In this document: in pieces, positions 8,119 to 23,204 of the stretch
Layout of the letters: every line of letters begins with the position of its first letter
How positions within the stretch are numbered: position 1 is the stretch's first letter
From: an uncultured delta proteobacterium
GTDB taxonomy: Bacteria > Desulfobacterota > RBG-13-43-22
NCBI GenBank assembly: GCA_963711835.1
Contig: CAVQFQ010000017.1
Location: 480,001-544,000, forward strand
Direction of reading: 5' to 3'
Length of the DNA: 64,000 bases
Program-made: the position numbers and the translations under genes
Notes under the pieces: generated by a model
What the model saw: only the letters and a program-made list of their open reading frames with translations
Databases searched by the model: none
Told to the model about the DNA's origin: nothing

Positions 8119-8901
8119 ATGGCCGACCAATCGGAAAAGAAAAAGATCCACTTTAAACGCGTACCGGCCCTGGATAAGGGCTTCCGAATGTTGGAAATCC
8201 TGTCTGAGGCCCAAGCTCCCCTGGGCGTCACCGAACTGGCCGACCGCCTGGGTTTCCACAAGAGCACGGTTTTCAATATCATGTACACCCTGTTGGATCT
8301 GGGTGTTCTGGAAAAAGCTCCGGCGAACAAGGTTCGCCTGGGAATGAAATTTTACACCTTGAGCCGGCCTTCGGCCGCCGGCGCTTTCATGATCTCGAAG
8401 ATAAGGCCCTTTCTGGAGGAGATCAATCGAAAAACGAAGTTCTCCGTATTCCTGGGAGTACGGTCCGCCCTCAAGGCGGTCATCCTGGATAAGGTGGATT
8501 CCAGCCAGGAGATCCGGGTATCTTCCTCCCGGGGCATGAAGATCCCCCTGATCGCCGGATCTCACGGGAAAGCCCTTTTGTCCCTGCTCCCGGAAAGCCA
8601 ACTCGATGAAATCCTGGTGGAGAGGAACCTAAAGAAATTTACGGCCCACACCTGCACCAACCCCCAGTCCTTTAAACACCTCGTGCGAAAAACGGCCAGG
8701 GATCGATTTGCCCTGGATAACGAAGAATACCTGGAAGGCATACGCTCTATGGCGATTCCCCTCAATTTGGGTCGCCCCGAAGTCCAGACCGCTATCTGGT
8801 TGGTCGGTCTGAAAAACCAGATCGCTGACGAAATGATCCCTAATTTTAGGGACCTTTTGAAAAAAATAGGCCTGCAAATCGAAACCCTCTTCTCAGCGTA
8901 G
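8119..8901 (+). CDS. IclR family transcriptional regulator
   Basis: VPALDKGFRMLEIL N-terminal HTH (HKSTV); C-terminal GKALL and DNEEYLEGIRSMAIP. Confidence 0.9.
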   Translation: MADQSEKKKIHFKRVPALDKGFRMLEILSEAQAPLGVTELADRLGFHKSTVFNIMYTLLDLGVLEKAPANKVRLGMKFYTLSRPSAAGAFMISKIRPFLEEINRKTKFSVFLGVRSALKAVILDKVDSSQEIRVSSSRGMKIPLIAGSHGKALLSLLPESQLDEILVERNLKKFTAHTCTNPQSFKHLVRKTARDRFALDNEEYLEGIRSMAIPLNLGRPEVQTAIWLVGLKNQIADEMIPNFRDLLKKIGLQIETLFSA

Positions 8902-8943
8902 GGCGATGTTTTTCGAAGCAGGCAACAGGAGGTTCCTCTCGAG

Positions 8944-10275
8944 ATGACGGAAAAAGGCAGGCACTACTGGAATCCCTGGCTGGAGACTCTGGATCCGGAA
9001 GGGTTGAGGTCCATTGAGCTGATGAATCTCGGCAAGCTGATTCGCTATGCCAAGGATCATTCCCCTTTTTATCGGGAGAGGTATAAAGACATTTTTCCCG
9101 AGGATATCAAAACTCTTGAGATCGCCAGGCGACTCCCCTTCATCGACAAAGAGGATCTCCGGAAAGCCCAGGAGGGCAAGGAACCGTTTCCTTACGGAGA
9201 AATGGTAGGGGTGGACCTTAAAGAGGTTGCTGATTTTCACCAAACCTCGGGGACCACTGGAAGACCGGTCTATGTCCCTGAATCCTACGAAAGCTGGCAA
9301 TGGCGGGTGGAAGTCTGGTGCCATATCCTCTGGATGGCCGGTTTCCGGGAGACCGACCGTGTCTTTATCCCTTTTGGGTACAACGTCTATGTGGCCTTTT
9401 GGGAAGGCCATTACGCCGCCGAAAAACTCGGCTGCGAAGTGGTCCCCGGCGGCGCCCTGGATACCCTGGGCCGGATCAACAAGATGATTGAAGTGAGGGC
9501 CACCGCCCTGATGAACACGCCCACCTATGGATTGCATCTGGCTGAGGAGGCGTTGAAAAAAGGGATCGATCCCAGGACCATCGGCATTAGAAGAATGCTG
9601 TGCGCCGGAGAGCCCTTGCCCCAGGCCACCCGATTAAGGTTGGAACAGGTCTGGGGGGCCGAAGTGTATGACCATATCGGAGGGACTGAGCCCTGTGCCT
9701 GGGCGGCCATGTGCAGCCGGAGAAAGGGCCTTCACCTGATGGAACCTTTCTTTTTCCTGGAAATCCTGGACCTGGAAACCTTGACCCGGGAGGTAGACCC
9801 CGGGGAACTGGGAGTGGCGGTGGTCACCCCCTTGGGGAGGCGTTCTTTTCCCCTGATCCGCTTTAACACCAAAGACGTGGTCCGGCGGGGGGAGGACGGC
9901 TGCCCCTGCGGGCGGACCTCCAGGATGATCGAAGCCGTGGTCGGACGGACGGACGATTTAAGAAAAATCAGGGGGGTCCTCTTTACTCCGGTTACCGTGG
10001 AAGAGGTCATTCGAAAGGAATTCCCGGAAATCGTTGAATATGAAATCCAGGTGGAGCGCCGGGCACTGATGGACGAAATCGCCCTCAAGGTAGAGTTCCA
10101 GGAAGAAATGTCCTCCGACAATTTTAAGGATTTTTCGCGCCGGATCTCGGAAAGACTGAAAATAAAAACCAACCTGAGATTTCTGACCGTGCTGGTAAGG
10201 CCCGGGGCACTTCCCCGCTACACCTTAAAATCCAAGCGCTTTAAAGACCTGCGGGAGGAAAAGGCCGATGAATAA
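8944..10275 (+). CDS. Phenylacetate-CoA ligase family (PaaK-like) aryl-CoA ligase
   Basis: HQTSGTTGRP, AGEP, PLIRFNTKD and GRTDDLRKIRGV motifs. Confidence 0.85.
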   Translation: MTEKGRHYWNPWLETLDPEGLRSIELMNLGKLIRYAKDHSPFYRERYKDIFPEDIKTLEIARRLPFIDKEDLRKAQEGKEPFPYGEMVGVDLKEVADFHQTSGTTGRPVYVPESYESWQWRVEVWCHILWMAGFRETDRVFIPFGYNVYVAFWEGHYAAEKLGCEVVPGGALDTLGRINKMIEVRATALMNTPTYGLHLAEEALKKGIDPRTIGIRRMLCAGEPLPQATRLRLEQVWGAEVYDHIGGTEPCAWAAMCSRRKGLHLMEPFFFLEILDLETLTREVDPGELGVAVVTPLGRRSFPLIRFNTKDVVRRGEDGCPCGRTSRMIEAVVGRTDDLRKIRGVLFTPVTVEEVIRKEFPEIVEYEIQVERRALMDEIALKVEFQEEMSSDNFKDFSRRISERLKIKTNLRFLTVLVRPGALPRYTLKSKRFKDLREEKADE

Positions 10276-10474
10276 GCCGGAGAAAAAATCCTTAGGGGAA
10301 AATCTTGAAGCCATACGGACTATCGTTGACCAGATGGAAAGACTCCTGGGGGATTTGCAGGAACTGGGCCGGGACGCACCGGTCATCGAGAAGAATGCCA
10401 AGGCCATGATGAGTTTCGTTGCTATCCTGCGCTACGGCATATCCGATATTATTACTATTAGAAATTTGGAATAA
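10268..10474 (+). CDS. Small hypothetical protein
   Basis: 68-aa ORF overlapping the ligase stop, with plausible RBS. Confidence 0.55.
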   Translation: MNKPEKKSLGENLEAIRTIVDQMERLLGDLQELGRDAPVIEKNAKAMMSFVAILRYGISDIITIRNLE

Positions 10475-10607
10475 ATCCGAATTTCGAAGCACGAAATCCG
10501 AAACAATCTCAAATTTTCAAAATCTAAATTGTTAAAACAATAACTTCAATTTTTGATATGTGGTCATTCGGATTTGTTTCGAATTTCGAAATTCGGATTT
10601 CGAATTT
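10473..10607. repeat. Inverted heptamer-repeat element
   Basis: Left arm AAATCCG-AATTTCG-AAGCACG-AAATCCG-AAACAA (10473-10506) mirrored by TTGTTT-CGAATTT-CGAAATT-CGGATTT-CGAATTT (10574-10607). Confidence 0.75.
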
Positions 10608-10680
10608 AACAACCCCCAATCAATCAATTTCTAGGTTTGGTCATGGTCTCTAAAGACAAACCCTATCAGAGGAGGGAATC

Positions 10681-11658
10681 GTGAGACTGCCCAAATTTAA
10701 TTATCTGGAGCCCGAAAGCATCGAGGAAGCAGCTTCTATGCTCCTGGATGACGAGGGGGCCAAGATACTCGCCGGAGGGACGGATCTTCTGGTCAACATG
10801 AAACATCGCCTTGAGGTCCCGGCGACCCTGGTCAACTTGAAGAAGATTAAGGGGCTGGATGCCATCCATCTGGATAACGGAAACTTGAGGATCGGAGCCC
10901 TGACGCCCCTGAAAAAAATAGTTCAGGATCCCTCCATTGTAGAAAAAATTCCGGTCCTGGCCCAGGCGGCCTCCTCAGTGGGCTCTTACCACCACCAGAC
11001 CATGGGGACTATCGGCGGCAATATCTGCCAGCAGAACCGATGCAAATATTATAATCAGTCTCAATGGTGGAGAAGCACCAATGTCCCATGCCTCAAGGTG
11101 GGTGGGGCCGTCTGCCACGTGGTCCAGAAGCAGGAGACCTGTTTTTCCAGCTACTGCGGGGACCTGGCCCCGGCCCTGTTAGCCCTGGAGGCCAGGGCCA
11201 TTTTCAGGAGCCGGATAGACTTCCGGGAAGTCCCGCTGGAAGAACTTTTTTCAGGAGACGGCCAGGCCCCCCTGGCAATAAAAAAGGGGGAGATCCTTTC
11301 AGAGATTGTCATTCCTAAGAGTTCTATGAACGGAGATTCAACCTATGTCAAGTTTGCCAACCGGGAAAGCATTGATTTTCCCATCGTCGGCATGGCTTTT
11401 CAGACCTCTCCGGAGAAGAGGGAATACCGGGTCGCCTTTACGGCCGTGGACCGGCGCCCCCTAAGAGGGCGCCAGGTTGAATCGCTCCTCAATGGCAAGG
11501 CTTTGACCCAGGAACTGATAGAAGAGGCTTCCGAACTGGCGACCCGAGAGGCCAAGCCGGTGAAAAATTCCATTTATTCACCGGCCTATAAAAGAAAGTT
11601 GATGGGTATCCTGCTTCAAAGCGTCATGAGCAAAAGGATAAGGGGGTTAAACGAATGA
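10681..11658 (+). CDS. hcrB: 4-hydroxybenzoyl-CoA reductase beta-like FAD/[4Fe-4S] subunit
   Basis: AGGTDLL and TIGGN FAD motifs plus Cys-rich insertion RCKYYNQSQWWR...C...C...C characteristic of HcrB. Confidence 0.75.
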   Translation: MRLPKFNYLEPESIEEAASMLLDDEGAKILAGGTDLLVNMKHRLEVPATLVNLKKIKGLDAIHLDNGNLRIGALTPLKKIVQDPSIVEKIPVLAQAASSVGSYHHQTMGTIGGNICQQNRCKYYNQSQWWRSTNVPCLKVGGAVCHVVQKQETCFSSYCGDLAPALLALEARAIFRSRIDFREVPLEELFSGDGQAPLAIKKGEILSEIVIPKSSMNGDSTYVKFANRESIDFPIVGMAFQTSPEKREYRVAFTAVDRRPLRGRQVESLLNGKALTQELIEEASELATREAKPVKNSIYSPAYKRKLMGILLQSVMSKRIRGLNE

Positions 11659-12131
11659 AACAAATTATTGAACTGTCCATCAATGGCGACCGGGTCGAAG
11701 TGCCGGCGTCGCCTAATAACACCCTTCTGGAGATTTTAAGGGACAAACTGGGACTGATGGGTACCAAGCGGGGCTGTGATCTCGGGGCCTGCGGGGCCTG
11801 CACGGTCCTGATCAACGGGGAGGCCTTTCTCTCCTGTATCATGCTGGCTATGGATGCGGTTGGAAAAGAGATTACGACCATAGAAGGATTGGGCGAGGGG
11901 GGAGCGCTTCATCCCCTGCAGCAGGCCTTTGTCGAAAAGGGCGGCATCCAGTGCGGCTTCTGCACCCCGGGCATGATCCTGACCGCCCAGGCGGTCTTGA
12001 ACGAAGATAAAAACCCCACCGAGGAGACCATTAAGAAAAAGATGGCCGGCAACCTCTGCCGCTGCACCGGATATAAAAAAGTCATTGAAGCGGTCCTGAG
12101 CGTCCCCGGCCAGGTCGGGAAGGAGGTCTAA
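11655..12131 (+). CDS. hcrC: Xanthine oxidase family 2x[2Fe-2S] subunit (HcrC-like)
   Basis: GCDLGACGACTV and QCGFCTPG...NLCRCTGY. Confidence 0.8.
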   Translation: MKQIIELSINGDRVEVPASPNNTLLEILRDKLGLMGTKRGCDLGACGACTVLINGEAFLSCIMLAMDAVGKEITTIEGLGEGGALHPLQQAFVEKGGIQCGFCTPGMILTAQAVLNEDKNPTEETIKKKMAGNLCRCTGYKKVIEAVLSVPGQVGKEV

Positions 12132-14417
12132 ATGGAAAAAGAATTTCAGGTCGTCGGACAGCGCCTGCCCATGCATGATGCGGCCGCCAAGGCCAAAGGA
12201 ACGGCCCTATTCACGGACGATATCGTTCTTCCGGGAATGCTTCATGGAAAGATTCTAAGGAGTCCCCTACCTCATGCCCGAATCCTGGCCATCGATATCT
12301 CCCGGGCCAAGAAACTTCCCGGTGTAAAAGGCGTGGTAACCGGCCAGGATATCCCGGATCGGCAATACGGCATTGTGCCCAAGGCCAGGGATGAATACGC
12401 CCTGGCCCGGGGGAAAGTCAGATATATCGGTGATGATGTAGCCGCTGTCTGCGCCATCGATCCGGAGATTGCCGAAGAGGCCCTCGAACTGATTAAAGTG
12501 GAATACGAAGAGCTTCCGGCCGTATTTGATCCCCTGGAGGCCATCAAAGAAGATGCCCCGGTAATACATGAGGGTGTTAAAAATAATACCTCCATTTATA
12601 TCCGGAAGGAATTCGGTGATGTGGAAAAGGCCTTTGCTGAAAGCGATTACGTCTTTGAAGACTCCTTCTATTCCCAGCCGGTCAATCATGCCCCCCTGGA
12701 ACCCCACGCGGCCCTTGCCCAGTATGATCCGCTACGAGGTGAATTCACCGTCTATTCCTCTACCCAGATACCCTTCTTCCTGCGACGGAATCTCTCGGCC
12801 ACACTCAAGGTTCCGGAATCCAGTGTTCGGGTCATCAAGCCCAAGGTGGGCGGCGGGTTCGGACAAAAAATAGACATGTTCGCCAAGGATTTCTGCGCCG
12901 CCTGGTTTGCTAGGGAGACGGGCCGGCCGGTCAAGTTTGTCTATGAGCGGGAAGAACTCTTCATCGCCACCCGGCAGCGGCATCCCATGACTATAACGGT
13001 TAAGACCGGCATGAAGAAAGACGGCACCATCATGGCCCAAAAATTCAAGGCCTATGCCGACGGCGGGGCCTATAACAGCACGGCCCCGACCATGATCGCC
13101 CTTTCCTGTTATTTTCTCATGATCCCCTACCGGGTGCCCAACCTGATTTACGAAGGGCATCATGTTTACACCAACAAACCGGTGGGCGGAGCCATGCGGG
13201 GCCACGGTATCCCCCAGGCCCGTTTTGCCGTGGAACGCCAGTTGGATATGATCGCCGATCGAATTGGTATTGATCCGGTTGATCTGCGGTTGAAAAACAG
13301 CATTCATGCCGGCGAGCCGCATCCGGCCAAATTTATCATCAACTCCTGCGGCTTTTCCGACTGCGTCGTCAAGGCGGCTGAGGCCATAGGCTGGAAGGAG
13401 AAAAGAGGAAAAATGCCCAGAGGAAGAGGCGTGGGAATCGCCGGGGCCTCTTTCCCCAGCGGGGTCAGCAACATGAGTCATATCAGCTCCGGGGCGGTGG
13501 TTCAATTGGGGCAGGACGGCGCCGTCAATGTCCTTTCCGGGGCCGCCGACATCGGTCAGGGCGCTGAAACGGTCATCTCTCAGATTGTTGCGGAGGTGCT
13601 GGGCGTGCCCATGGAGGATGTCAGGATCACCGCCGCCGACACAGGCATCACTCCCCTGGATCCGGGGACTTTCGGAAGCGGCGTGACCGTCAGGGCCGGC
13701 AATGCGGCCCGTTTGGCTGCCCTGGTGGTCAGGGAGAAGATCTTCAAATTCGTGGCCGACAAACTGGAAGCCAATAGCGACGATCTGGTGGCCCGGGATA
13801 GGACCATCTTTGTCAAAGGTTCTCCGGACCGGGGGATGTCCTTGAAGGAGGCCATCAAAGGGTATCAGTATGCGGACCTGCCCATGCCCATTATGGGAAG
13901 ATCGGCCTGGTTTCCACCGGCTACCGAACCAACCACCCTCTTCAAGGAAGACGGCAATTTCGCACCCAGCTATTCCTTTATGGCCCAGGCGGCTGAAGTG
14001 GATGTTAATCTGGAGACCGGTCAGGTGAAACTTCTGAAGATGGTCACGGCCCATGACTGCGGCCGGGCCATCAACCCCATGCTGGTTGAGGGCCAATTGG
14101 AAGGTTCGGTTGTGGGCGGTATGGGACAGGCCCTCTATGAGAACGTCATTGTTGAAAAAGGGCAGGTGATGAATCCTTCTTTTCTGGATTATGGTTTCCC
14201 CACCTTTCTTGAGATGCCCGAAATAGAGGCCATCGAGGTTGAAACCGACGACCCGGTGGGGCCCTTTGGGGCCAAGGAAGCCGGCGAAGGAACCCAGTTA
14301 TCCCCGGCCCCGGCCATTGTCAATGCCATCTATGATGCCATCGGCATTGATTTCAAGGAACTGCCCGTCACACCCGAAAGGGTCCTCCAGGCCTTGGAAG
14401 AGAAAAAGAAACCTTGA
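12132..14417 (+). CDS. hcrA: Molybdopterin-binding subunit, 4-hydroxybenzoyl-CoA reductase alpha-like
   Basis: VGGGFG, GAMRGHG, DIGQG and GAKEAGEG motifs; B-C-A gene order. Confidence 0.75.
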   Translation: MEKEFQVVGQRLPMHDAAAKAKGTALFTDDIVLPGMLHGKILRSPLPHARILAIDISRAKKLPGVKGVVTGQDIPDRQYGIVPKARDEYALARGKVRYIGDDVAAVCAIDPEIAEEALELIKVEYEELPAVFDPLEAIKEDAPVIHEGVKNNTSIYIRKEFGDVEKAFAESDYVFEDSFYSQPVNHAPLEPHAALAQYDPLRGEFTVYSSTQIPFFLRRNLSATLKVPESSVRVIKPKVGGGFGQKIDMFAKDFCAAWFARETGRPVKFVYEREELFIATRQRHPMTITVKTGMKKDGTIMAQKFKAYADGGAYNSTAPTMIALSCYFLMIPYRVPNLIYEGHHVYTNKPVGGAMRGHGIPQARFAVERQLDMIADRIGIDPVDLRLKNSIHAGEPHPAKFIINSCGFSDCVVKAAEAIGWKEKRGKMPRGRGVGIAGASFPSGVSNMSHISSGAVVQLGQDGAVNVLSGAADIGQGAETVISQIVAEVLGVPMEDVRITAADTGITPLDPGTFGSGVTVRAGNAARLAALVVREKIFKFVADKLEANSDDLVARDRTIFVKGSPDRGMSLKEAIKGYQYADLPMPIMGRSAWFPPATEPTTLFKEDGNFAPSYSFMAQAAEVDVNLETGQVKLLKMVTAHDCGRAINPMLVEGQLEGSVVGGMGQALYENVIVEKGQVMNPSFLDYGFPTFLEMPEIEAIEVETDDPVGPFGAKEAGEGTQLSPAPAIVNAIYDAIGIDFKELPVTPERVLQALEEKKKP
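14122..14410 (+). repeat. Direct repeat A (3' end of hcrA), second copy at 19203-19491
   Basis: 289-bp ungapped match with 12 mismatches by manual count. Confidence 0.95.
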
Positions 14418-14480
14418 CAGGAAACCGGCAATTCCTTAAAATAAAAGTAAGGCAAAATATTCCTTACTTAGAGGTGACGC

Positions 14481-14720
14481 ATGATCGTCGCAAAAATAAC
14501 GTCCAAAGGGCAGGTGACCATCCCCAAAAAGGTCAGGGAAAAACTTGGGGTTCAGCCCGGAGAAGGTCTGGGTTTTGAAGAAAAAGGAAACCTGATTCTT
14601 ATCAGGAAAGCGGTAACCAAATCTCCCTTTGACCGGTGGGTGGGTAAGCTGAAACATCTTAAGGGGCGACGAAGCGACGACCTGGTCAGGGATATTCGGG
14701 GTCATGATAACGGCCGTTGA
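14481..14720 (+). CDS. AbrB/MazE/SpoVT antitoxin (VapB-like)
   Basis: KITSKGQVTIPKKVREKLG AbrB motif; CCTTA...TAAGG inverted repeat upstream. Confidence 0.85.
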   Translation: MIVAKITSKGQVTIPKKVREKLGVQPGEGLGFEEKGNLILIRKAVTKSPFDRWVGKLKHLKGRRSDDLVRDIRGHDNGR

Positions 14721-15199
14721 CACCAACTATTATCCTCGATGTCCTTATTCCGGATGAACCTTTCCGACCGTCCTCCAAAAACCTTTTGGACCTGCATTTA
14801 TCAAAGGGCAAGCTCATCCTTTGCGAGATCGTCTTTGCCGAACTGGCAGCTCACTTCCCATCCGAACCTGAACTCAGACTGTTTCTGACCGAAACCGGGA
14901 TGCGGCTGGAATATTCAAACGAGAAGTCGCTCTATATTGCCGGCACCAGATGGGCCAACTATGCCAAAAAGGGAAACAAAGACCGGTTTATTTGCGGCCA
15001 ATGCAACCAGGTCTTTGCTGCAGCCTGCCCGAAATGCTCGACGGCCTTCACCAAAAGGCTTCATGTCTTGGGGGATTTCCTCATAGGGGCCCATGCTCTG
15101 GTAAAGGCCGACTGCCTGCTTTCCCGTGACCTCGGGATCTATAAGACCTACTTCAGGGATCTCAAGGTAGTCAACTCGAATAATCCATCGGCCGGTTAG
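14704..15199 (+). CDS. PIN-domain toxin (VapC-like) with Zn-ribbon insertion; +1 frameshift near 14728
   Basis: ATG 14704 gives MITAVDTN, continuing after one extra base as IILDVL...AEL...DFLIGAHA...LLSRD. Confidence 0.75.
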
Positions 15200-15258
15200 A
15201 GTGACAGCCTTATATTTTCAGCAGCAAATTCGATGCAAAGAAAATAGAGTTGATAAAC

Positions 15259-15303
15259 AGACCTGAACCTCGCTCCGCTTTTTCTTGTACTATAATTACC
15301 AGA
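15259..15303. repeat. Direct repeat B, identical copy at 19675-19719
   Basis: AGACCTGAACCTCGCTCCGCTTTTTCTTGTACTATAATTACCAGA (45 bp) occurs twice. Confidence 0.95.
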
Positions 15304-15468
15304 TAACTAAGAGCCAAGAGCAGACCCTTTCATCGCCCTGCAAAAAAAAGATAGTTTTTTGCAATGAAGATTTTTTTCTCTTGACATGGCCTTTTAATGG
15401 GTGACTCTTTCACTTCTGTGATATCTTCAAAATACCTTCTTGCCATGCTTGCCTGTCGTCTCCTCTAC

Positions 15469-15553
15469 GTCTAACACCGTATTCAGCCGCCGACCGACCA
15501 CCCATTAGGAGAAATACTCGCTACCCACGGTCGGCTGCAATAATTGGTTGGCA
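15469..15553 (-). other. Integron attC site 1
   Basis: Minus strand TGCCAAC...GTTAGAC ends, inner complementary arms with a bulged base, 3 bp after the toxin stop. Confidence 0.75.
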
Positions 15554-15556
15554 GGT

Positions 15557-15892
15557 TTACAGTTTCAAATCGATAAGTCTTCTCAGAAGAATATCCTCAA
15601 CGTTCTGCCGGGAATCCAGCACAGACAGAACGTATACCTTGTTCTCCGAAACTCTATATATGATCCGCCATGGTGGAATAATCATCTCACGATACTGCGT
15701 AACCCCGTGATCCAGCAATTCCGGAACAATACGGCCTCTATCAGGGAAAACTCGAAGCCTTGACGCTCTTTCCTTAATGCTTTTGAATACCTCGTTAGCT
15801 TGATGAGGGTTATCGTCGGCGATGTACTGAACGATCGTAATAAGATCGCTCTCTGAAGTGTCCGACCATCGCACGTCGTAGCGTTTCTTCAT
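15557..15892 (-). CDS. RelE/ParE family toxin
   Basis: DLITIVQYIADDN...FPDRGRIVPEL...WRIIYRV...VLDSRQN. Confidence 0.85.
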   Translation of the reverse strand: MKKRYDVRWSDTSESDLITIVQYIADDNPHQANEVFKSIKERASRLRVFPDRGRIVPELLDHGVTQYREMIIPPWRIIYRVSENKVYVLSVLDSRQNVEDILLRRLIDLKL

Positions 15893-16170
15893 TTCATCTT
15901 TTCTTTCAGAATTGTCTCAATGTTTGCAAATACTTCTTCCTGAGACTTTGTTTTTCCGCGTCTCACGTCTTCTTCGCCTTGGGAAAGGAGCTTCAAAATC
16001 CCTATGGCGTTCCTCATGTTTTCATAGCTCTTAGGGTCCTGGAGCACGGCCCGGGGTTCTCCATTTTGGGTAATGATCACAGGCCGATGCGTTTCATTTA
16101 TTTGTTTCAACAAATCGGGAGCCTTTGATTTTAGATAAGTAATTGGCTTGATATCTTTTGAAATATTCAT
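15889..16170 (-). CDS. Phd/YefM family antitoxin
   Basis: DIKPITYLK...PVIITQNGEPRAVL; overlaps the toxin start. Confidence 0.85.
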   Translation of the reverse strand: MNISKDIKPITYLKSKAPDLLKQINETHRPVIITQNGEPRAVLQDPKSYENMRNAIGILKLLSQGEEDVRRGKTKSQEEVFANIETILKEKMK

Positions 16171-16378
16171 GTCATCACCTCCAGTCTTTATATGGTACTA
16201 TAAAAAGACTGGTTGTCAATTCTTTTGGTGTTTCCTGCTCTCGCCAAATCGGGAAAACCGTCTTTTTTAGCCTCAAAAAACTCATTATAGGCCCATTTTA
16301 AAGGGTACAGATGATAATATTCCCTGCCAGATCAAGAAGTTGTCGAGGCCCGACCCCGTTAAGTAAGTCCTATTTATT

Positions 16379-17266
16379 TCAAACATTGGCTTTCACAGCA
16401 TGTTGAGAAATGGCGTCTACTATTTCTGCCCAAACCCCTTTTGGCATGTCATGCCCCATTCCATTAATTATAAATAATCTTGCCCCTGGTATCACCCGAG
16501 CTGTATTTTTTCCTCCTTCGACCGGTATCAGCGGATCATCAGCCCCATGAATTACAAGTGTTGGGACTTTAATAGTTGAAAGCGACGGTCTTCGATCGCC
16601 ATTGACAAGAATAGCTATGTTTTGACGAGCCATTCCCTGCGGGTAGTATGAACGATCATAGCTCTTCTCTATGAACGTACGAGCTCTCTTTTCCTCAAAT
16701 GGAAATCCTGGACTCCAAAGCCTCCGCCATATATTCATATTGTGTTCAATATATGCTTCGCGTTCCTCTGGTGCCGGCGCGATAACAGTAGCTATTGTTT
16801 CCGGTTCCCCCTGCGGAAGATCAGGATTTCCTGTGGTCGACATTATTGAAGTGAGACTCAGGACATGTTTTGGATGTCGATAGGAGATAACCTGGGCTAT
16901 CATACCGCCCATTGAAGCACCACAGATATGTGCCTTCTCAATGCCTAAAGCATTAAGTAAACCAACGGCGTCATCTGCCATATCATCGAGAGAATATGCT
17001 GATTCCACAGGCTTGCCTTCCATTAAAGCTTTGATTGCAGCCGGAAAGTCAGGAATTCCTGCTTCTTCAAATTTTGTCGAAAGACCTGCATCCCGGTTGT
17101 CAAACCGAATCACAAAGTAACCATTTTTTGCAAATAACTCGCAGAATTCGACTTCCCAAAAAATCATCTGAGCCCCATTACCTGCAACTAATAATAATGC
17201 CGGGGTAGAACTATCACCGAAAGTATCATATTCAATCTGGATTCCATTGGCCGTCACATTAGGCAT
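16379..17266 (-). CDS. Alpha/beta hydrolase
   Basis: RFDNRDAGLS, GASMGG nucleophile elbow, HGADDPL and GMGHD; AT-richer than core genes. Confidence 0.9.
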   Translation of the reverse strand: MPNVTANGIQIEYDTFGDSSTPALLLVAGNGAQMIFWEVEFCELFAKNGYFVIRFDNRDAGLSTKFEEAGIPDFPAAIKALMEGKPVESAYSLDDMADDAVGLLNALGIEKAHICGASMGGMIAQVISYRHPKHVLSLTSIMSTTGNPDLPQGEPETIATVIAPAPEEREAYIEHNMNIWRRLWSPGFPFEEKRARTFIEKSYDRSYYPQGMARQNIAILVNGDRRPSLSTIKVPTLVIHGADDPLIPVEGGKNTARVIPGARLFIINGMGHDMPKGVWAEIVDAISQHAVKANV

Positions 17267-17365
17267 TGCTGACTCCTTTTCCTGTTAATATCGTGAATTA
17301 CTATATTTATCTTGACCCACAACATGGGCGTCATTCGGAGCCGGCTTTTTCGGCGATCGAGGTTT

Positions 17366-17392
17366 GGGGCCAGGTCTTGAAATATCACTTTT
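17366..17392. repeat. Orphan copy of the RAYT terminal repeat
   Basis: GGGGCCAGGTCTTGAAATATCACTTTT versus GGGTCAGGTCTTGAAATATCACTTTT at 18264. Confidence 0.85.
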
Positions 17393-17454
17393 ATTGTTTC
17401 CTCTACCTCACTATCAATCGGGCGAGAAGTAGGGCTGAACCAAGGATAACCGGT

Positions 17455-17823
17455 TTATTCGATCCTGATCTTTGCGGCCCCTTTTTCCTTCTTCAGTAAG
17501 GTAGGGTCCTCTAATAATCTTCCCACCATGTTGACCTCGCTGGCCGGGACCGGATCGGAACCGGTGCTCATGGGGGTTGGACCGAAAAATATGGCCAGGG
17601 CTTTGCCCGGAGGCCAATACCCGATATCACCGGCCTTCACCCTCCGGGTGGCCGATTCATCCAGGGGCATATTGACCGGAATCTCAAAATAGAACTCATC
17701 GCCCCATTCATTAGGCCGGGTTTCGAGGGGGAGGCTGGCGAAAACGGCCTGGGCACAAGGAGAATCGAAGAGTTCGGCGTTTAGGGTTGTCTGTCCGATG
17801 AAAATTTTAATTGGGTTCGGCAT
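17455..17823 (-). CDS. Cyclophilin-like fold protein
   Basis: WGDEFYF and GDIGYWPPGKALAIFFGPTP. Confidence 0.8.
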   Translation of the reverse strand: MPNPIKIFIGQTTLNAELFDSPCAQAVFASLPLETRPNEWGDEFYFEIPVNMPLDESATRRVKAGDIGYWPPGKALAIFFGPTPMSTGSDPVPASEVNMVGRLLEDPTLLKKEKGAAKIRIE

Positions 17824-17870
17824 AGTTGAAAATAAAGAAATCGTGCCTCTCTATCTAAGGTCTATCTAAG

Positions 17871-17931
17871 GCCCAACATCGGGCGTCAGTGGCGCGGCAC
17901 CGCCGCGTTCGCCTGGATGCACTGGTTAGCC
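17871..17931 (-). other. Integron attC site 2
   Basis: Minus strand GGCTAAC...GTTGGGC, 61-bp imperfect palindrome. Confidence 0.75.
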
Positions 17932-18224
17932 ATTTGCTAAAAACCCTTTGTGAAACATGACAGTGCCTTTATAGGGCCAAGGCCATACCAATTAAGGCTG
18001 CCATCGGAAATTGCTATAGGCGAGAACGCTATATGGCCGACCACTTTTCCATTAACTTCTGCGACTAGCGAAATGGTCAGCGCATTGGCATCACGTAATG
18101 CATTTATTATGAATTGTTCCGTATGATTACTAATTGCAAGATTCTGGAAGGCTGCAATGGTAACTTTCGATATCGCTTCAATATCTGAAATTGTTTCATT
18201 CCTTATGATCATTTTAAACTCCAT
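17926..18224 (-). pseudogene. GNAT acetyltransferase cassette with internal deletion
   Basis: IIRNET...VVGHIAFSPI...WYGLGP is cut before motif A; the C-terminus GTVMFHKGFLANG* survives in another frame, with its TAA inside the attC GGCTAAC. Confidence 0.7.
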
Positions 18225-18263
18225 ATTCGGACAGGATATTTATTTGGTGGCTAATGGGTCATA

Positions 18264-19192
18264 GGGTCAGGTCTTGAAATATCACTTTTTATTTTTCTCT
18301 GCTTTTGCCATCACCTTACTGACAGTAGTATAATGAATTCCCAAATAGTCCGCAATTTCTTTCAGGGTATATCCTTGGCTCATATGAGCACGGCGGATGC
18401 TTATATTTCTTTGGTCTTTTGTTTTCTGTCCCCTAAAAATATTATCGAGGCTTGGCCTGCCTATATATCTCTGTGAGCGAGGAATTTCCTTTATCTGTTT
18501 TTTGTCTTCTAAAACATCCTTGAATTTTTCAACAAATTCCTCTTCTCCCAACAATACTTGATTCTGAAGCTCTTCCCATGAAGCACTCCCATGGATTCCC
18601 TCCTGTACAAACGACCGGTATCGCCTTTTGGCAATAGTTCTTCGAGAGTTGAAAAAACCCAGAATCCAGCCAGTGGTGAGGTACTCCGGCTCTTTGCCTA
18701 TTCCTGCCGTGGCCAGATAGCTGCTCCATCTCCAAGCCTCGATCTTTTTGACTATCCCGGCCCGCACAGGATTCAATACAACATATCGGCAGAGTTCAAG
18801 AAGATAGTTTTCTTTTTGGACTAAAATTGCCTTGAAACGTCCTTGAAAAATATGACCAGGTTTTTGGTGTCTTCTATTATAGCGTTGAGTATAGACACCG
18901 TTCAATTGGCGCATACCTGACGAAAGGTTGGCATCGGGTGTTTCGATCATAAGATGGTAGTGGTTATCCATGAGACAATAGGCATGACAGAGCCAGTTGT
19001 ATCGTTTGACAACGGAGCCTAAGATAGAAAGGAATATCTGCCGATCCTGATCATCTTCGAATATATCTTTACGCCCATTCCCTCGGGATGTGACATGATA
19101 GACTGCACCAGGATATTCAATTCGTAACGGTCTGGCCATAAGATAATCCTAATAAAAAATTACTTATATTCTGATATTTCAAGACCTGACCC
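18264..19192 (-). mobile_element. RAYT-like HUH Y1 element with 21-bp terminal inverted repeats
   Basis: GGGTCAGGTCTTGAAATATCA (18264-18284) and its exact reverse complement (19172-19192) bracket the gene. Confidence 0.8.
18282..19139 (-). CDS. REP-associated tyrosine transposase-like protein (IS200/Y1 HUH fold) with C-terminal HTH
   Basis: YHVTSRGN, AYCLMDNHYHL (HUH), RYVVLNPVRAG (catalytic Tyr), WSSY and TLKEIADYLGIHYTTVS. Confidence 0.9.
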   Translation of the reverse strand: MARPLRIEYPGAVYHVTSRGNGRKDIFEDDQDRQIFLSILGSVVKRYNWLCHAYCLMDNHYHLMIETPDANLSSGMRQLNGVYTQRYNRRHQKPGHIFQGRFKAILVQKENYLLELCRYVVLNPVRAGIVKKIEAWRWSSYLATAGIGKEPEYLTTGWILGFFNSRRTIAKRRYRSFVQEGIHGSASWEELQNQVLLGEEEFVEKFKDVLEDKKQIKEIPRSQRYIGRPSLDNIFRGQKTKDQRNISIRRAHMSQGYTLKEIADYLGIHYTTVSKVMAKAEKNKK

Positions 19193-19202
19193 CACTGACC
19201 CC

Positions 19203-19510
19203 TGGGACAGGCCCTCTATGAGAACGTCATTGTTGAAAAAGGGCAGGTGATGAACCCTTCTTTTCTGGATTATGGTTTCCCCACCTTTCTGGAGATGCCC
19301 GAAATAGAGGCCATCGAGGTTGAAACCGACGACCCGGTGGGGCCCTTCGGGGCCAAGGAAGCCGGCGAAGGAACCCAGTTATCCCCGGCCCCGGCGATTG
19401 TCAATGCCATCTACGATGCCATCGGCATTGATTTCAAGGAACTGCCCGTCACCCCGGAAAAGGTCCTTCAGTCTTTGGAGGAGAAAAAGAAGCAGTCCCA
19501 AGAAAGATAG
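19203..19510 (+). pseudogene. Orphan 3' fragment of an hcrA allele (repeat A, copy 2)
   Basis: Near-identical to hcrA codons GQALYE...EEKKK with a different tail (QSQER*); starts directly after the RAYT end. Confidence 0.9.
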
Positions 19511-19674
19511 CCTCCCCTTTTTCTTCTCGTGAGGTTATCGTGCCTCCAACCGTTTCTTTTATCGCCTCAAAGGTACGATGGTTTGAATTGTGGCGTTTTG
19601 GCACAGCACCCAATTGCCTAAAGAACCCCAAAATTTAATCAGGCATCTAAAAACAAGTTAGAGGTCAAGAAAAT

Positions 19675-19719
19675 AGACCTGAACCTCGCTCCGCTTTTTC
19701 TTGTACTATAATTACCAGA
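19675..19719. repeat. Direct repeat B, copy 2
   Basis: Identical to 15259-15303. Confidence 0.95.
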
Positions 19720-20128
19720 CTGAACGGCTCACCTCCTTCTTCAGCAGCGCAGCGTTTCGTTCCAGGAATTCCATCACGGACTCAACCGCTGCCATCTCAA
19801 CAAGCCCGAGTCCGTAGTGACTCGCCAAGTAGCAGAACGCAAAGGCCAGACGCGGATCTGACAACACCGCACCCTGGCTCGCGAGGTTCGCGACGTAGCT
19901 GGCCAACGCCGAGTCGGTCGCACGCTTCAGGGTCGCGCCGCGAGAAGGCAGGCTTCGAAACTTCAGGGCTACCGCGGGAGCAAGGTGAAAGAGCTCCTGC
20001 TCGTCAATGCGTTGACCGACGGCGGGGCCGAAGGGAATTGCCTCTCGAGCGTCTGCGTACGCCGCCCGGATTTCCTCCAGCCACGCTTCCGGCGTTGCTG
20101 GGAGCTCTCGTTGTTCCAGTCTCTTCAC
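19712..20128 (-). CDS. Hypothetical cassette protein (GC-rich), stop supplied by repeat B
   Basis: Begins just after attC 3; no own attC; TGG TAA lies inside repeat B. Confidence 0.6.
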   Translation of the reverse strand: MKRLEQRELPATPEAWLEEIRAAYADAREAIPFGPAVGQRIDEQELFHLAPAVALKFRSLPSRGATLKRATDSALASYVANLASQGAVLSDPRLAFAFCYLASHYGLGLVEMAAVESVMEFLERNAALLKKEVSRSVW

Positions 20129-20142
20129 ATCTTCCTCGTGAA

Positions 20143-20206
20143 GCCCAACGCCCCGGCTGACCCGACGGGTGCTTTTGCCCGGTCGGTGTCGAGCCGGTTG
20201 TTATGT
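20143..20206 (-). other. Integron attC site 3
   Basis: Minus strand ACATAAC...GTTGGGC with arms CCGGCTCGAC / GTCAGCCGG. Confidence 0.8.
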
Positions 20207-20213
20207 GAAGCGA

Positions 20214-20624
20214 TCACTTTATACTCACAGGAGGTGCTTTTGATGAAACGTTTTCTTTTGTGGTGGCGGTCTCACCAAGTTCTTTCAGAGGTGTTGTCGC
20301 CTTTGTACTTATGCCTTTATCAATCTTGGTTTGTGGCTGGGTATGTTCTCTCTGCCACCAGCGAATATCTGGACCGTATTTTTGGATTAATCCTCCAAAT
20401 ATTGCGGATAGGGCGCTGATAATGGCAGCGATTATGACGATTCGTTTGTTTAACTTGTGTTGCTCTACCATGATTTCTCTATTTAATCGTTGCTGCTCTT
20501 TTATTAGGTGCTCCTCCCATTCCATTTGTGCAAGAAACGGAGCAGGGCTGCCATCTTTAAAATCCCTTGCTTTTGCCAGAGCAATTTTGGCTTTCTCTTC
20601 CTCTGTCATGGCTTTATCGGTCAT
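20214..20624 (-). CDS. Hypothetical membrane protein, complete gene cassette
   Basis: One predicted TM segment; bounded by GTTATGTGA at its 5' end and TCACATAAC at its 3' end. Confidence 0.65.
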   Translation of the reverse strand: MTDKAMTEEEKAKIALAKARDFKDGSPAPFLAQMEWEEHLIKEQQRLNREIMVEQHKLNKRIVIIAAIISALSAIFGGLIQKYGPDIRWWQREHTQPQTKIDKGISTKATTPLKELGETATTKENVSSKAPPVSIK

Positions 20625-20633
20625 TTATTCCTC

Positions 20634-20689
20634 ACATAACGCGAAGTTCACCGGGAGCGTTAGCGATCCGGGGGAACGTCTTGATAGAC
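20634..20689 (-). other. Integron attC site 4 (R'' degenerate)
   Basis: Minus strand GTCTATC...GTTATGT with arms GTTCCCCCGG / CCGGTGAAC. Confidence 0.7.
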
Positions 20690-20698
20690 CACACACAG

Positions 20699-21130
20699 TT
20701 ATAATTCCTTTTTTTGCCACGCAGAATAAACAAAATAAAATGCGGGTACCGCTATAATGGGTATGAGTAATGCACCAAATCCTTCAGAACGAAAGAACAC
20801 ATAAGTAAACGAAACAGTCCCGATCAATATAACTAATCCAAATACTACAGCAACAGTACGCATATGCGCGTTTGCAAACAATGAAGAGCAAGTTTTTAAT
20901 GCAGCGAAAGCAGATAATCCATTCATTAGCATGCCACGAATAATTGCTGTCAGCAGACCGGGGTTGTCTGCCTCGCTAGCACCACCAAATCTCTCCGGAA
21001 TAAATATTTTACCGAAAAAAATTAATAATTTTTCAAGTACCGGTGTTACCAGATAAATCATGATCAGATAGATAGCAACACTTGCAAGTGCTGCAACAAT
21101 AGTTTGCCAGATAGAAGAAGAACGATTCAT
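20699..21130 (-). CDS. Hypothetical multi-TM membrane protein (cassette)
   Basis: About four hydrophobic segments, AT-rich, followed by attC 4. Confidence 0.65.
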   Translation of the reverse strand: MNRSSSIWQTIVAALASVAIYLIMIYLVTPVLEKLLIFFGKIFIPERFGGASEADNPGLLTAIIRGMLMNGLSAFAALKTCSSLFANAHMRTVAVVFGLVILIGTVSFTYVFFRSEGFGALLIPIIAVPAFYFVYSAWQKKEL

Positions 21131-21211
21131 ATTGCTACTCCAAATAATAGATTCATACGGTCTTTCGGGTTCGTCTCAACATATTGTGATTATTGGTTTT
21201 AATCCTCTGGT

Positions 21212-21454
21212 TTATTCACCACTGCAGTAGGCTTCCCATTGCCACACATGCAAGCCCCACCCGGAAAAAAATTTTGTCAATGTAGCATACGGTCGCTTCG
21301 CGGTACGATCCATCTTCGGCTGTCTTAACGATGTATTTCCATACTTCTTTTCTTTCTTGCTCCTCGCTGAAAGGGTATATTTATTCTCGATTTTGATCGC
21401 GAAAGCCAAGCATATCGTCCCCAATATAACAAGCAATATGCCACCATGACCCAA
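21212..21454 (-). pseudogene. Possible 5'-truncated gene fragment
   Basis: Weak ORF beginning at a TGACCC motif junction. Confidence 0.3.
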
Positions 21455-21458
21455 TGAA

Positions 21459-21568
21459 GGGGTCAGGTCTGCTCTTGGCTCTTTCTTTTTCCCCCTACGC
21501 CAACTCCATTTTAATTTCCCCCCACCTCAACTCTAGCACCTTATAATCCCAAGGTCAGCCACCTGAAA
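21459..21568 (+). repeat. Direct repeat C, diverged copy at 22471-22581
   Basis: GGGGTCAGGTCTGCTCTTGGCTCTTTC...TTATAATCCCAAGGTCAGCCACCTGAAA versus GGGATCAAGTCCTGCTTTTAGCTCTTTC...TTATAATCCCAAGGTCAGCCCCCTGAAA. Confidence 0.9.
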
Positions 21569-21827
21569 GGCCACCTCCAAGGAGCCGGAAAATAAAAAAG
21601 GCCCTGCTGCTCGATTATGAGGCAGGGCCTTCACGTTCCATTCATCCTCCCGCATTTAAGGTTAGACGAGAAAAAGAAAAGGGAAATTAACCGGATAGCC
21701 AGTGAATAGCATAGAAAATTTCCCCTGTCAATACATAGCGGGTTTTGGGATTTATGGAATTTTTTCCTAAGGCTTGACAAGGCCGCCTTACTAATGTATT
21801 GTATTTTGTAAGGAGGATTTGCAACCT

Positions 21828-22070
21828 ATGCTCGTCAAGATCACCAGCAAGCGACAAGTTACCTTTCCGGCACAGGTTTTGAAGGCACTGGGAGTTCATC
21901 CCGGTGAAAGTCTCGAACTGGTGAAGGGACCGGACGGCTTTCTCCTGCGCCCCCGCCGCATTGATACTTCCCGACTGGCGCCCCTGCGAGGGAAACTTAA
22001 CCGCGGCCAGGGAAATTTCAACCTCGAAACTTTTCGAAATGAGCCCCATGACCAAACGCTTCGGGATTGA
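21828..22070 (+). CDS. AbrB/MazE antitoxin
   Basis: VKITSKRQVTFP; upstream TTGACA and CCTTAC...GTAAGG inverted repeat. Confidence 0.8.
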   Translation: MLVKITSKRQVTFPAQVLKALGVHPGESLELVKGPDGFLLRPRRIDTSRLAPLRGKLNRGQGNFNLETFRNEPHDQTLRD

Positions 22071-22446
22071 CACCTCTATCCTGGTTCGTCTGGCAACCGG
22101 GGATCCTAAAGCTGGATTTGAACAGTGCATGCGAAGGCTAACTCGGTTGGTCGAGGAAGGTCAGGCCGAAATCTTCGCCTCTAATCAAGTTATTGGCGAA
22201 GCCTATATTGCCTTGCAGCACCACTATGGGGTCAGCAAATCGGACGCGCGTGCCGCCCTGACCAGTGTCCTGAGCAGCGGAATGGTGTCTCCCTTGAATG
22301 GAATATCCGTCTTCGAAGACCTCGCAGCCAGGGGCGGTTGCGGTCTTCTCGATCGATTGATTGCCGGCGATTATCGACGCGCGGAATTGGTCACTCTCAC
22401 TCTGGATCGTCGGATGGTTTCCCTCCCGGATGTTCAGGCTTTATAA
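22048..22446 (+). CDS. PIN-domain toxin (VapC-like)
   Basis: GIDTSILVR...GEAY...LLDRLI...TLDRR. Confidence 0.8.
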   Translation: MTKRFGIDTSILVRLATGDPKAGFEQCMRRLTRLVEEGQAEIFASNQVIGEAYIALQHHYGVSKSDARAALTSVLSSGMVSPLNGISVFEDLAARGGCGLLDRLIAGDYRRAELVTLTLDRRMVSLPDVQAL

Positions 22447-22470
22447 CTCTTCAGTTAGATCAATTTAATA

Positions 22471-22581
22471 GGGATCAAGTCCTGCTTTTAGCTCTTTCTT
22501 TTTCCCCTACGCCATACTCCATTTCAATTTCCCCCCACCTCACCTCTGGCACATTATAATCCCAAGGTCAGCCCCCTGAAA
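22471..22581 (+). repeat. Direct repeat C, copy 2 (upstream of tpx)
   Basis: Matches 21459-21568. Confidence 0.9.
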
Positions 22582-22611
22582 TGCCGATCCCAAAAAACTT
22601 TCTTCCGGCCC

Positions 22612-22649
22612 TTGACTTTCATAAAATAGGATTAATAATAATTATTATC
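22612..22649 (+). promoter_or_regulatory. Putative promoter with overlapping Fur/PerR-like box
   Basis: TTGACT at 22612; ATTAATAATAATTATTATC (22631-22649) matches 15 of 19 positions of the Fur consensus GATAATGATAATCATTATC. Confidence 0.5.
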
Positions 22650-22670
22650 AAAAAAGGGGAGGGGACAACT

Positions 22671-23186
22671 ATGGAAGAACGGACTGGTCTGGTAAGCCTG
22701 CAAGGGAATCCTCTGACATTATTAGGCCCGGAGCTTAAAGTGGGAGACCAGGCGCCGGAGTTTGAGGTCTTGGATAATAATCTGTCTCCCATCCAGTTGG
22801 CTTCATTTAAAGGAAAGATAATCATCCTGGCTTCGGTACCCTCTCTGGATACGCCGGTGTGTGACCTGGAAACCCGGCGTTTCAATACCGAAGCCGGAAA
22901 ACTGGATCCGGACATCCGGATACTGACCATCAGTATGGATTTGCCTTTTGCCCAGAAGCGCTGGTGCGGGGCAGCCGGGGTGGATAAGGTCGTTACGCTT
23001 TCCGACCACCGGACAGCTTCTTTCGGAAGCGCCTACGGCGTCCTGATCAAGGAACTGCGCCTCTTGGCCAGGGCTGTTTTTGTCTTGGACCGGGAGGGAG
23101 TCATCCGCTATATCCAGGTCCTCCCGGATCTGGCCCAGGAGCCGGATTATGACGAAGTAATCAAGGTTGTTGAAAAACTGGTCTAA
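22671..23186 (+). CDS. tpx: Thiol peroxidase
   Basis: VPSLDTPVC, SMDLPFAQKRWC, LLARAVFV and EPDYD. Confidence 0.92.
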   Translation: MEERTGLVSLQGNPLTLLGPELKVGDQAPEFEVLDNNLSPIQLASFKGKIIILASVPSLDTPVCDLETRRFNTEAGKLDPDIRILTISMDLPFAQKRWCGAAGVDKVVTLSDHRTASFGSAYGVLIKELRLLARAVFVLDREGVIRYIQVLPDLAQEPDYDEVIKVVEKLV

Positions 23187-23204
23187 ACATAAAAAGGAAA
23201 CCCC

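Follow-up and report, generated by a model that had tools for sequence, protein, structure and literature searches.

A second allele of a gene 3' end joined to the terminal inverted repeat of a TIRYT element in an uncultured Desulfobacterota genome

In a 64,000-nucleotide stretch of DNA from an uncultured delta proteobacterium (assembly GCA_963711835.1, contig CAVQFQ010000017.1, positions 480,001 to 544,000; henceforth the window), the 3' end of a gene resembling hcrA, the last of an hcrB/C/A-like operon, is present twice. One copy (T1) belongs to the intact gene, while the other (T2) lies without the rest of the gene beside the terminal inverted repeat (TIR) of a TIRYT element, which encodes a Y1/HUH-type transposase. 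The TIR|T2 junction was likely made by the TIRYT enzyme. Our preferred reading, to which we give a probability of about 0.5, is that a TIRYT joined T2 to its own end in a related strain, and that a circle carrying this joint entered here by recombination at a second repeat (R), with T1 retained.

The two tails (14122-14410 and 19203-19491) align over 289 bp without gaps, at 95.8% identity and a spacing of 5081 bp. They differ at 12 positions (14174, 14210, 14267, 14315, 14333, 14372, 14375, 14380, 14387, 14391, 14393 and 14399), ten of them third codon positions (p = 5e-4 for ten or more of 12), and at the protein level they differ by R/K and A/S alone. Over 96 codons, the Nei-Gojobori method gives 11 synonymous and two non-synonymous changes (ratio of non-synonymous to synonymous proportions, pN/pS, 0.053; p = 4e-6 against neutral change), and the reading frame of T2 is uninterrupted until a stop codon at 19510. 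Given that a dead duplicate decaying in place would be expected to show mostly non-synonymous changes, T1 and T2 are alleles, each of which evolved as coding sequence. A preliminary description of this DNA had reported the same counts and the lack of indels, and had also concluded that both copies evolved as coding sequence; all of this was reproduced, and the random scatter over codon positions that it had named as the contrary outcome was not seen. Its label hcrA for the gene needs softening. The product scores 761 bits against TIGR03194 (4-hydroxybenzoyl-CoA reductase alpha, HcrA), under the cut-off of 994.55, and we therefore call it HcrA-like. Its beta and gamma partners likewise score under their cut-offs, and one member of its protein cluster carries the name HcrA in a source.

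The junction reads AAGACCTGACCCC-A-CTGACCCC-TGGGACAGGCC, as previously described, and T2 begins 10 nt outside the TGACCC of the upstream TIR. The joint shares no homology with the 5' part of the gene (A). Its offset is typical of the family: among relatives, duplications of inner-side DNA starting 7-13 nt outside TIR-like ends were found in 12/299 cases, compared to 13/7319 random sites (p = 4e-11; 116 loci, without L104, L118 and L127). A variant set, in which six of 119 loci were dropped as redundant (three being distinct copies of multi-copy elements), gave 5/156 against 11/6165. The periods of these duplications range from 80 to 4345 bp at the fixed offset, next to the 5081 bp at the hcrA-like locus, and stutters of the TIR end were found behind 15 of 110 gene-flanking ends, as opposed to 1-2% in two controls. 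Five family genomes (57 regions) gave duplications at 2/69 ends against 8/2713 (p = 0.024), with about half of the pattern matches possibly due to chance according to a reversed-pattern control. One of these two duplications, at L215 in another genome, repeats 167 bp of a gene 3' end from 9 nt outside the TIR onward, and tandem copies of the TIRYT's own end occur in the relatives L032, L087 and L088. Statistically, TIR-like ends of the TIRYT family start inner-side duplications 7-13 nt outside the repeat, ranging from 8-nt stutters to several kb.

The genome that holds the window contains further loci of this kind. Of the 194 inner-side boundaries of its 97 local repeats, five lie behind a TIR-like end, with a mean of 0.35 expected and none of 2000 randomly shifted sets reaching five (the motif list used here was drawn mainly from TIRYT flanks). 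All five duplications copy 3' parts of genes (hcrA-like, DUF362, CoA-ligase, DUF6064 and PIN) at 89-96% identity, four of them reach about to the stop codon, and in every case the joined piece originates a short way upstream within the same locus. Their pN/pS values are 0.06, 0.61, 0.29, 0.58 and 0.84; two pairs are significantly synonymous-biased, and the sibling pairs without significant bias look older or too short. Two look-alike orphan tails (C8 124020 and C15 60884) lack a TIR beside them, and the count leaves them out.

The enzyme beside T2 had been called a RAYT. That a transposase end adjoins T2 stands, and from its sequence features the class can be refined to an intact TIRYT with TIRs, i.e. 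a TIRtron (Di Nocera et al. 2013, PMC3733652) or TnpA-Y1 subclass 2.1.2 (Quentin et al. 2018, 10.1101/279083). The catalytic motifs are intact (HYH at 60, YVVLNP at 119), and the open reading frame (ORF) matches PF01797 and the NCBIfam RAYT profile NF047646 (92.4 bits, cut-off 80). A C-terminal match to the helix-turn-helix (HTH) model HTH_23 is weak (E = 1e-4; 22.3 bits, under the cut-off of 24.6). The ends at 18264 and 19172 form a perfect inverted pair of 21 nt that is kept in relatives; the upstream end (GGGGTCAG) satisfies GGGGWSAS, and this TIR also frames most of 79 related loci. In the portions of the two sources considered here, the described class shares with the window element the RAYT-like HUH/Y1 protein, the YxxxNP motif, the GGGGWSAS-type framing TIRs and solo TIR copies nearby; the C-terminal HTH of the class (DnaA_C, HTH_23 or HTH_28) has only the weak HTH_23 match as a possible counterpart. 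A general repeat scan found no GTAG-type repetitive extragenic palindromic (REP) hairpins beside the TIRYT gene, although no dedicated REP search was made.

A second, 49-bp direct repeat (R; 15255-15303 and 19671-19719), overlooked by the preliminary description, bounds the unit that is missing in relatives. The locus layout is A-T1-B-R-C-TIR|T2-D-R-E (Table 1), and the 4416-bp unit is a circular permutation of T2-D-R-C. The earlier proposal was that 14122-19202 is the insert, restoring the gene at its duplicated end in the manner of an integrative element. Instead, the natural empty site lacks 15255/15303-19670/19719 and maps to R, not T: in contigs of three of four runs (X2, X3 and X4; three study codes), 15258 is joined to 19675 with 0-4 other letters. 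A metagenome scan gave two contigs, L100, which is contiguous as A-T1'-B-R-E, and L101, which has A-T1'-B and then other DNA. The tail at the empty site, which the preliminary description had suggested identifying, is of the T1 type in L100. Compared to the window, L100 differs at 78/1990 sites in A, 5/289 in T1, 29/836 in B, 0/176 over 15128-15303 and three sites in E; its match to the window ends at 20149, where different sequence takes over. Because run X2 has the same T alleles as L100 and the two may represent a single population, the empty-site records are not four independent witnesses. Neither D nor R had a match in 20 family genomes.

Table 1. Features of the hcrA-like locus and the adjoining TIRYT unit, in window positions.
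Feature	Position	Strand	Remark
hcrA-like gene, intact	12132..14417	+	761-aa Mo-cofactor subunit, xanthine dehydrogenase family; 5' part is segment A
T1, gene-linked tail	14122..14410	+	allele type of all sampled close relatives
B, AbrB/MazE-type antitoxin gene and 160-aa partner ORF without Pfam match	14418..15254	+	joined to A-T1 in L100 and L101
R1, first copy of 49-bp repeat	15255..15303	+	opens with TIR-like end AGACCTGAACC; single copy at empty site
Unit C-T2-D-R, 4416 bp	15304..19719		not present in L100 or in contigs of runs X2, X3 and X4
TIR of second TIRYT family	15309..15326	-	inverted copy at 21466-21483
Cargo, Phd/YefM antitoxin and ParE/RelE toxin pair	15557..16170	-	
Cargo, alpha/beta hydrolase	16379..17266	-	best NCBIfam matches are macrolide esterases, all far under cut-off
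Solo TIR	17365..17400	+	remnant of another copy of the TIRYT downstream end
Cargo, cyclophilin-like protein	17455..17823	-	
Downstream TIR of TIRYT	18264..18284	+	GGGTCAGGTCTTGAAATATCA; 21 nt, 100% inverted match
TIRYT (terminal-inverted-repeat Y1/HUH transposase), 285 aa	18282..19139	-	HYH at 60, Y119xxxNP, weak C-terminal HTH
Upstream TIR of TIRYT	19172..19193	-	outer side toward T2
Stutter of TIR end	19194..19202	+	A-CTGACCCC, 9 nt; family footprint
T2, orphan second allele of gene 3' end	19203..19510	+	reads through to own stop (…KKKQSQER*)
D, 3' flank accompanying T2	19492..19670	+	TIR-like end runs into R2
R2, second copy of 49-bp repeat	19671..19719	+	48/49
E, 138-aa ORF	19712..20128	-	directly behind R at empty site; 3 differences/478 bp vs L100

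The direction of the event is probably opposite to the one proposed before, with T1 as the resident tail; that the insert 14122-19202 brought the present tail of the gene is not favoured. All five other members of the hcrA-like protein cluster end in ERVLQAL, as T1 does, and none in EKVLQSL. The end of P0005, the nearest relative of part A (10 of 663 aa), is exactly that of T1. T2 keeps outgroup states at 14210 and 14380, and its K residue, found in 94 of 105 more distant homologues, is likewise that of the outgroup. Both L100 and L101 carry A-T1-B. A protein tree of part A did not resolve its six-member clade. In a contig of run X1 the gene is followed by a D-like start (CCAAG…GATAGCCTC). T2-D therefore probably represents an authentic end of the gene together with its flank, which is compatible with both directions.

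Under the preferred reading, with capture in a related strain and entry at R, the HUH enzyme would nick just outside its TIR and connect this end with an upstream site that is selected with little specificity. The resulting circle or tandem copy would have one end fixed and the other variable. From a donor with the order A'-T2-D-R-C-TIR, the product would be a circle of T2-D-R-cargo-TIRYT end that was taken up here and placed in the chromosome by RecA-type recombination at the 49-bp R. An integrase would not be needed, since the captured host DNA is itself a homology arm, and any sequence in common with a sister strain could let host recombination seat such circles there.

Several results weigh against this scheme. 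The R arm is short, 49 bp as opposed to 289 bp for T. The search for a full-length protein with the end of T2 gave only the T1-type cluster at 98%, followed by matches at 93% or less, and across 19050-19850 no contig of runs X1, X2, X3 and X5 covers the TIR|T2 junction or D; the donor order is therefore unseen. The missing cover of the junction proves nothing, and each of 24 runs had fewer than 20% of the words. Of the four sibling pairs (pN/pS 0.29-0.84), only one of 624 bp is significant alone. The 12 family matches come from nine loci in eight genomes, most of their upstream sites lying in element DNA and not in host genes, and 40 loci added from the phylum gave no TIR-anchored duplication. 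Within the sections of the literature examined, neither cleavage nor a circle is reported for TIRYTs.

L100 also provides a point against T1 as the resident tail. Over 14122-14377 (256 bp) it has two differences to T1 and nine to T2, where part A predicts about eight, which favours T2 as the tail that belongs to A, although A diverges unevenly over its length (1 to 14 per 200 bp). The same TIRYT joint may then have been carried by a circle T1-B-R-C-TIR that entered at the tail homology, T1 being the replacement tail and T2-D the original, and the B-R-E form arising later through deletion between the R copies. The X1 contig and the greater length of T as a homology arm also fit such an entry, as does a sibling locus (L144; G000 C10 108302-117017) where convergent DUF362 and CoA ligase genes each have an orphan 3' end. 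A gap of 80 bp separates these two ends, and the TIRs that enclose them on either side have their outer sides turned toward them, an arrangement most simply explained as two replacement-tail insertions. The cargo consists of a Fur-family regulator, a molybdopterin oxidoreductase and a peroxidase (katG-like, split) on one side and a DUF2442 gene on the other. However, the original adjacency of these genes could not be confirmed in family genomes; in G012 and G013 the matches to the two genes share a contig, but their relative orientation differs. At the hcrA-like locus, A-T1-B-R-E is seen and A-T2-D-R-E never, the crossover would have to be confined to the first 52 bp of T because relatives match T1 from 14174 on, the end of T1 is that of all five other cluster members, and an extra deletion would have had to occur and spread. 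We consider entry at the tail rather unlikely, and give entry at R roughly twice its odds.

A TIRYT joint without any free circle would leave an identical final layout. The end may have been joined directly to the incoming DNA of a relative, anchored by downstream homology, or a tandem duplication may have formed in cis and been partly overwritten through later allele exchange. The element-end tandem copies in L032, L087 and L088 speak for such routes, as does the mosaic make-up of the locus through recent exchanges: behind a near-identical gene, L100 and L101 differ at 35 sites. On the other hand, plain duplication in cis followed by decay predicts mostly non-synonymous changes, whereas only two of 13 are, and a direct join alone leaves the same-locus upstream origin of all five own-genome pieces unexplained. 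We regard both variants together as improbable.

Still less probable is a chimera in the assembly, made from two co-occurring strains with different alleles. The genome does resemble a metagenome assembly (89% complete, 6.4% contamination, with split genes) and there is no independent record across the junction. But the TIR|T2 joint, at the family offset, has no homology to part A, the layout is repeated at four more loci of this genome and in L215, and the differences between the tails are third-position substitutions without indels.

The preliminary description had also noted that the duplicated copy starts with a sequence resembling the terminal motif. The likeness is real, the start of T matching the TIR at 8/10 positions, a score reached by 0.6% of nearby positions, and GGGACAGGCC agreeing with GGG[AT][CG]A[CG] of the published consensus. 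It does not reflect a guiding rule: none of 12 other upstream join sites reaches 8/10 (none exceeds 7/10), and head-to-head TIR pairs are not enriched (2/305, against 1.8% in controls), which rules out targeting of cryptic TIRs as a family rule. Were the start of T a cryptic second end, T2-to-TIR would be a composite transposon and the junction that of an end-to-end circle. The same two counts stand against this, the four other orphan tails of the genome start without a TIR-like word (by eye), and the motif is dictated by Met-Gly-Gln-Ala codons. A composite transposon is thus highly improbable, and the TIR-like start of T is probably a coincidence.

Some integrative elements restore their target gene by bringing its 3' end. 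The present locus shares with them an intact gene and a diverged 3'-end copy at the far side of the insert, but it has a 289-bp repeat at 96% and not a short att core, and the absence of an integrase noted in the preliminary description holds, with no tyrosine or serine integrase among the 21 proteins of 8119-25181.

Another parallel is the one-ended transposition of ISCR1/IS91-like elements, by which complex class 1 integrons are built according to the model of Toleman et al. (as covered in the parts of PMC7707992 and PMC3575428 drawn upon). In that model, too, one end is fixed and the other variable, a circle with adjacent DNA is proposed, and entry is through homologous recombination, which needs no integrase and leaves a duplicated conserved segment behind. 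By contrast, the window enzyme is a 285-aa Y1_Tnp with TIRs and not an IS91-type transposase with oriIS/terIS in place of TIRs, and the role of the arm falls to a chromosomal gene end or the 49-bp repeat, not to the 3'-conserved segment (3'-CS). By analogy, the TIRYT unit would work like the ISCR1 circle-plus-recombination model without being an ISCR. The available portions of PMC3733652 and 10.1101/279083 describe neither inter-strain transfer of cargo nor the capture of host gene ends, nor duplications with a start outside the TIR. We found no description of TIR-anchored gene-end capture in the literature searched, which covered few subscription journals, and no report of TIRYT activity in those parts of it that were examined.

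We tentatively put forward, at somewhat less than even odds, that TIRYT ends in general are integrase-free, homology-targeted cargo shuttles. They would cut about 10 nt outside the TIR and join a variable site in a conserved gene, each circle carrying cargo together with a host gene 3' end as the recombination arm in sister strains, and at least five such events would be recorded in this genome (hcrA-like, DUF362, CoA-ligase, DUF6064 and PIN), including the katG/Fur/molybdopterin-oxidoreductase block. If so, a class without a function would gain an ISCR-like role in the movement of chromosomal cargo. According to the sections of 10.1101/279083 used here, this subclass is the second largest among Y1/HUH transposase-like proteins and occurs in 14.9% of strains; both that source and PMC3733652, as far as covered, ask for further or in vitro analysis of the class, and background on RAYT groups can be found in the part of PMC5581495 consulted. 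As a natural record, the locus and its siblings would lead one to expect cleavage at about 7-13 nt outside TGACCC or CGTCCC, a product in the form of a tandem copy or one-ended circle, and cargo that travels together with a host gene end as its homology arm, all of it directly testable. Orphan but well-conserved gene 3' ends in assemblies, otherwise taken for pseudogenes or misassemblies, would also be explained.

The cargo was also compared with integrons. No match to the integron integrase TIGR02249 over the cut-off was found in the 89%-complete genome, and a strict attC scan gave none in the cargo and six matches in control regions, which makes it uninformative. By eye, attC-like hairpins lie behind minus-strand cargo genes at 15469-15556, 17869-17933, 20142-20209 and 20633-20690; two of five hand-picked candidates fold better than shuffles (z about -3).

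The TIR of the second family beside R1 carries, by eye, a promoter-like TTGGCT-17 nt-TATAGT across the R|C boundary (15280-15330, minus strand). The R|E form disrupts this pair, and R there supplies the stop codon of the E ORF. A TIR of the second family also stands at the start of a 117-bp repeat (89%; 21458-21572 and 22470-22585) with an AbrB/PIN toxin-antitoxin pair between its copies, and related sequence was found on several contigs. Elsewhere in the genome (G000 C17 631951, C17 14533, C4 371200, C8 27166 and C16 105815) there is a dispersed family of about 200-230 bp resembling miniature inverted-repeat transposable elements, with inverted ends (GGGGGTCTTGATTTCAAG…CTTGAAATCAAGACCCC) similar to the TIRYT end.

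Some relatives show additional arrangements. Nested partial TIRYT 3' ends are found in L087 (10596-15153) and L088 (8236-9743), all of them joined 7-13 nt outside the TIR and with 1-3 nt of microhomology by eye. L088 also has a tyrosine integrase gene whose second copy (93.7%) starts about 90 bp beyond the TIR. In G004, clusters of ACAGCGTCCCC at about 150-300 bp spacing (C27 130896-131830 and C28 348-3171) are a possible array of TIR ends. Finally, a glucose-6-phosphate isomerase gene in L097 (7843-8723) has an in-frame stop and ends abruptly at a CCTGACACC-like motif, and 5.6 kb away (13657-14009) a second allele (92%) begins mid-gene right behind a similar motif, 22 of the 28 differences falling in one codon position; the layout is the same, with another motif.

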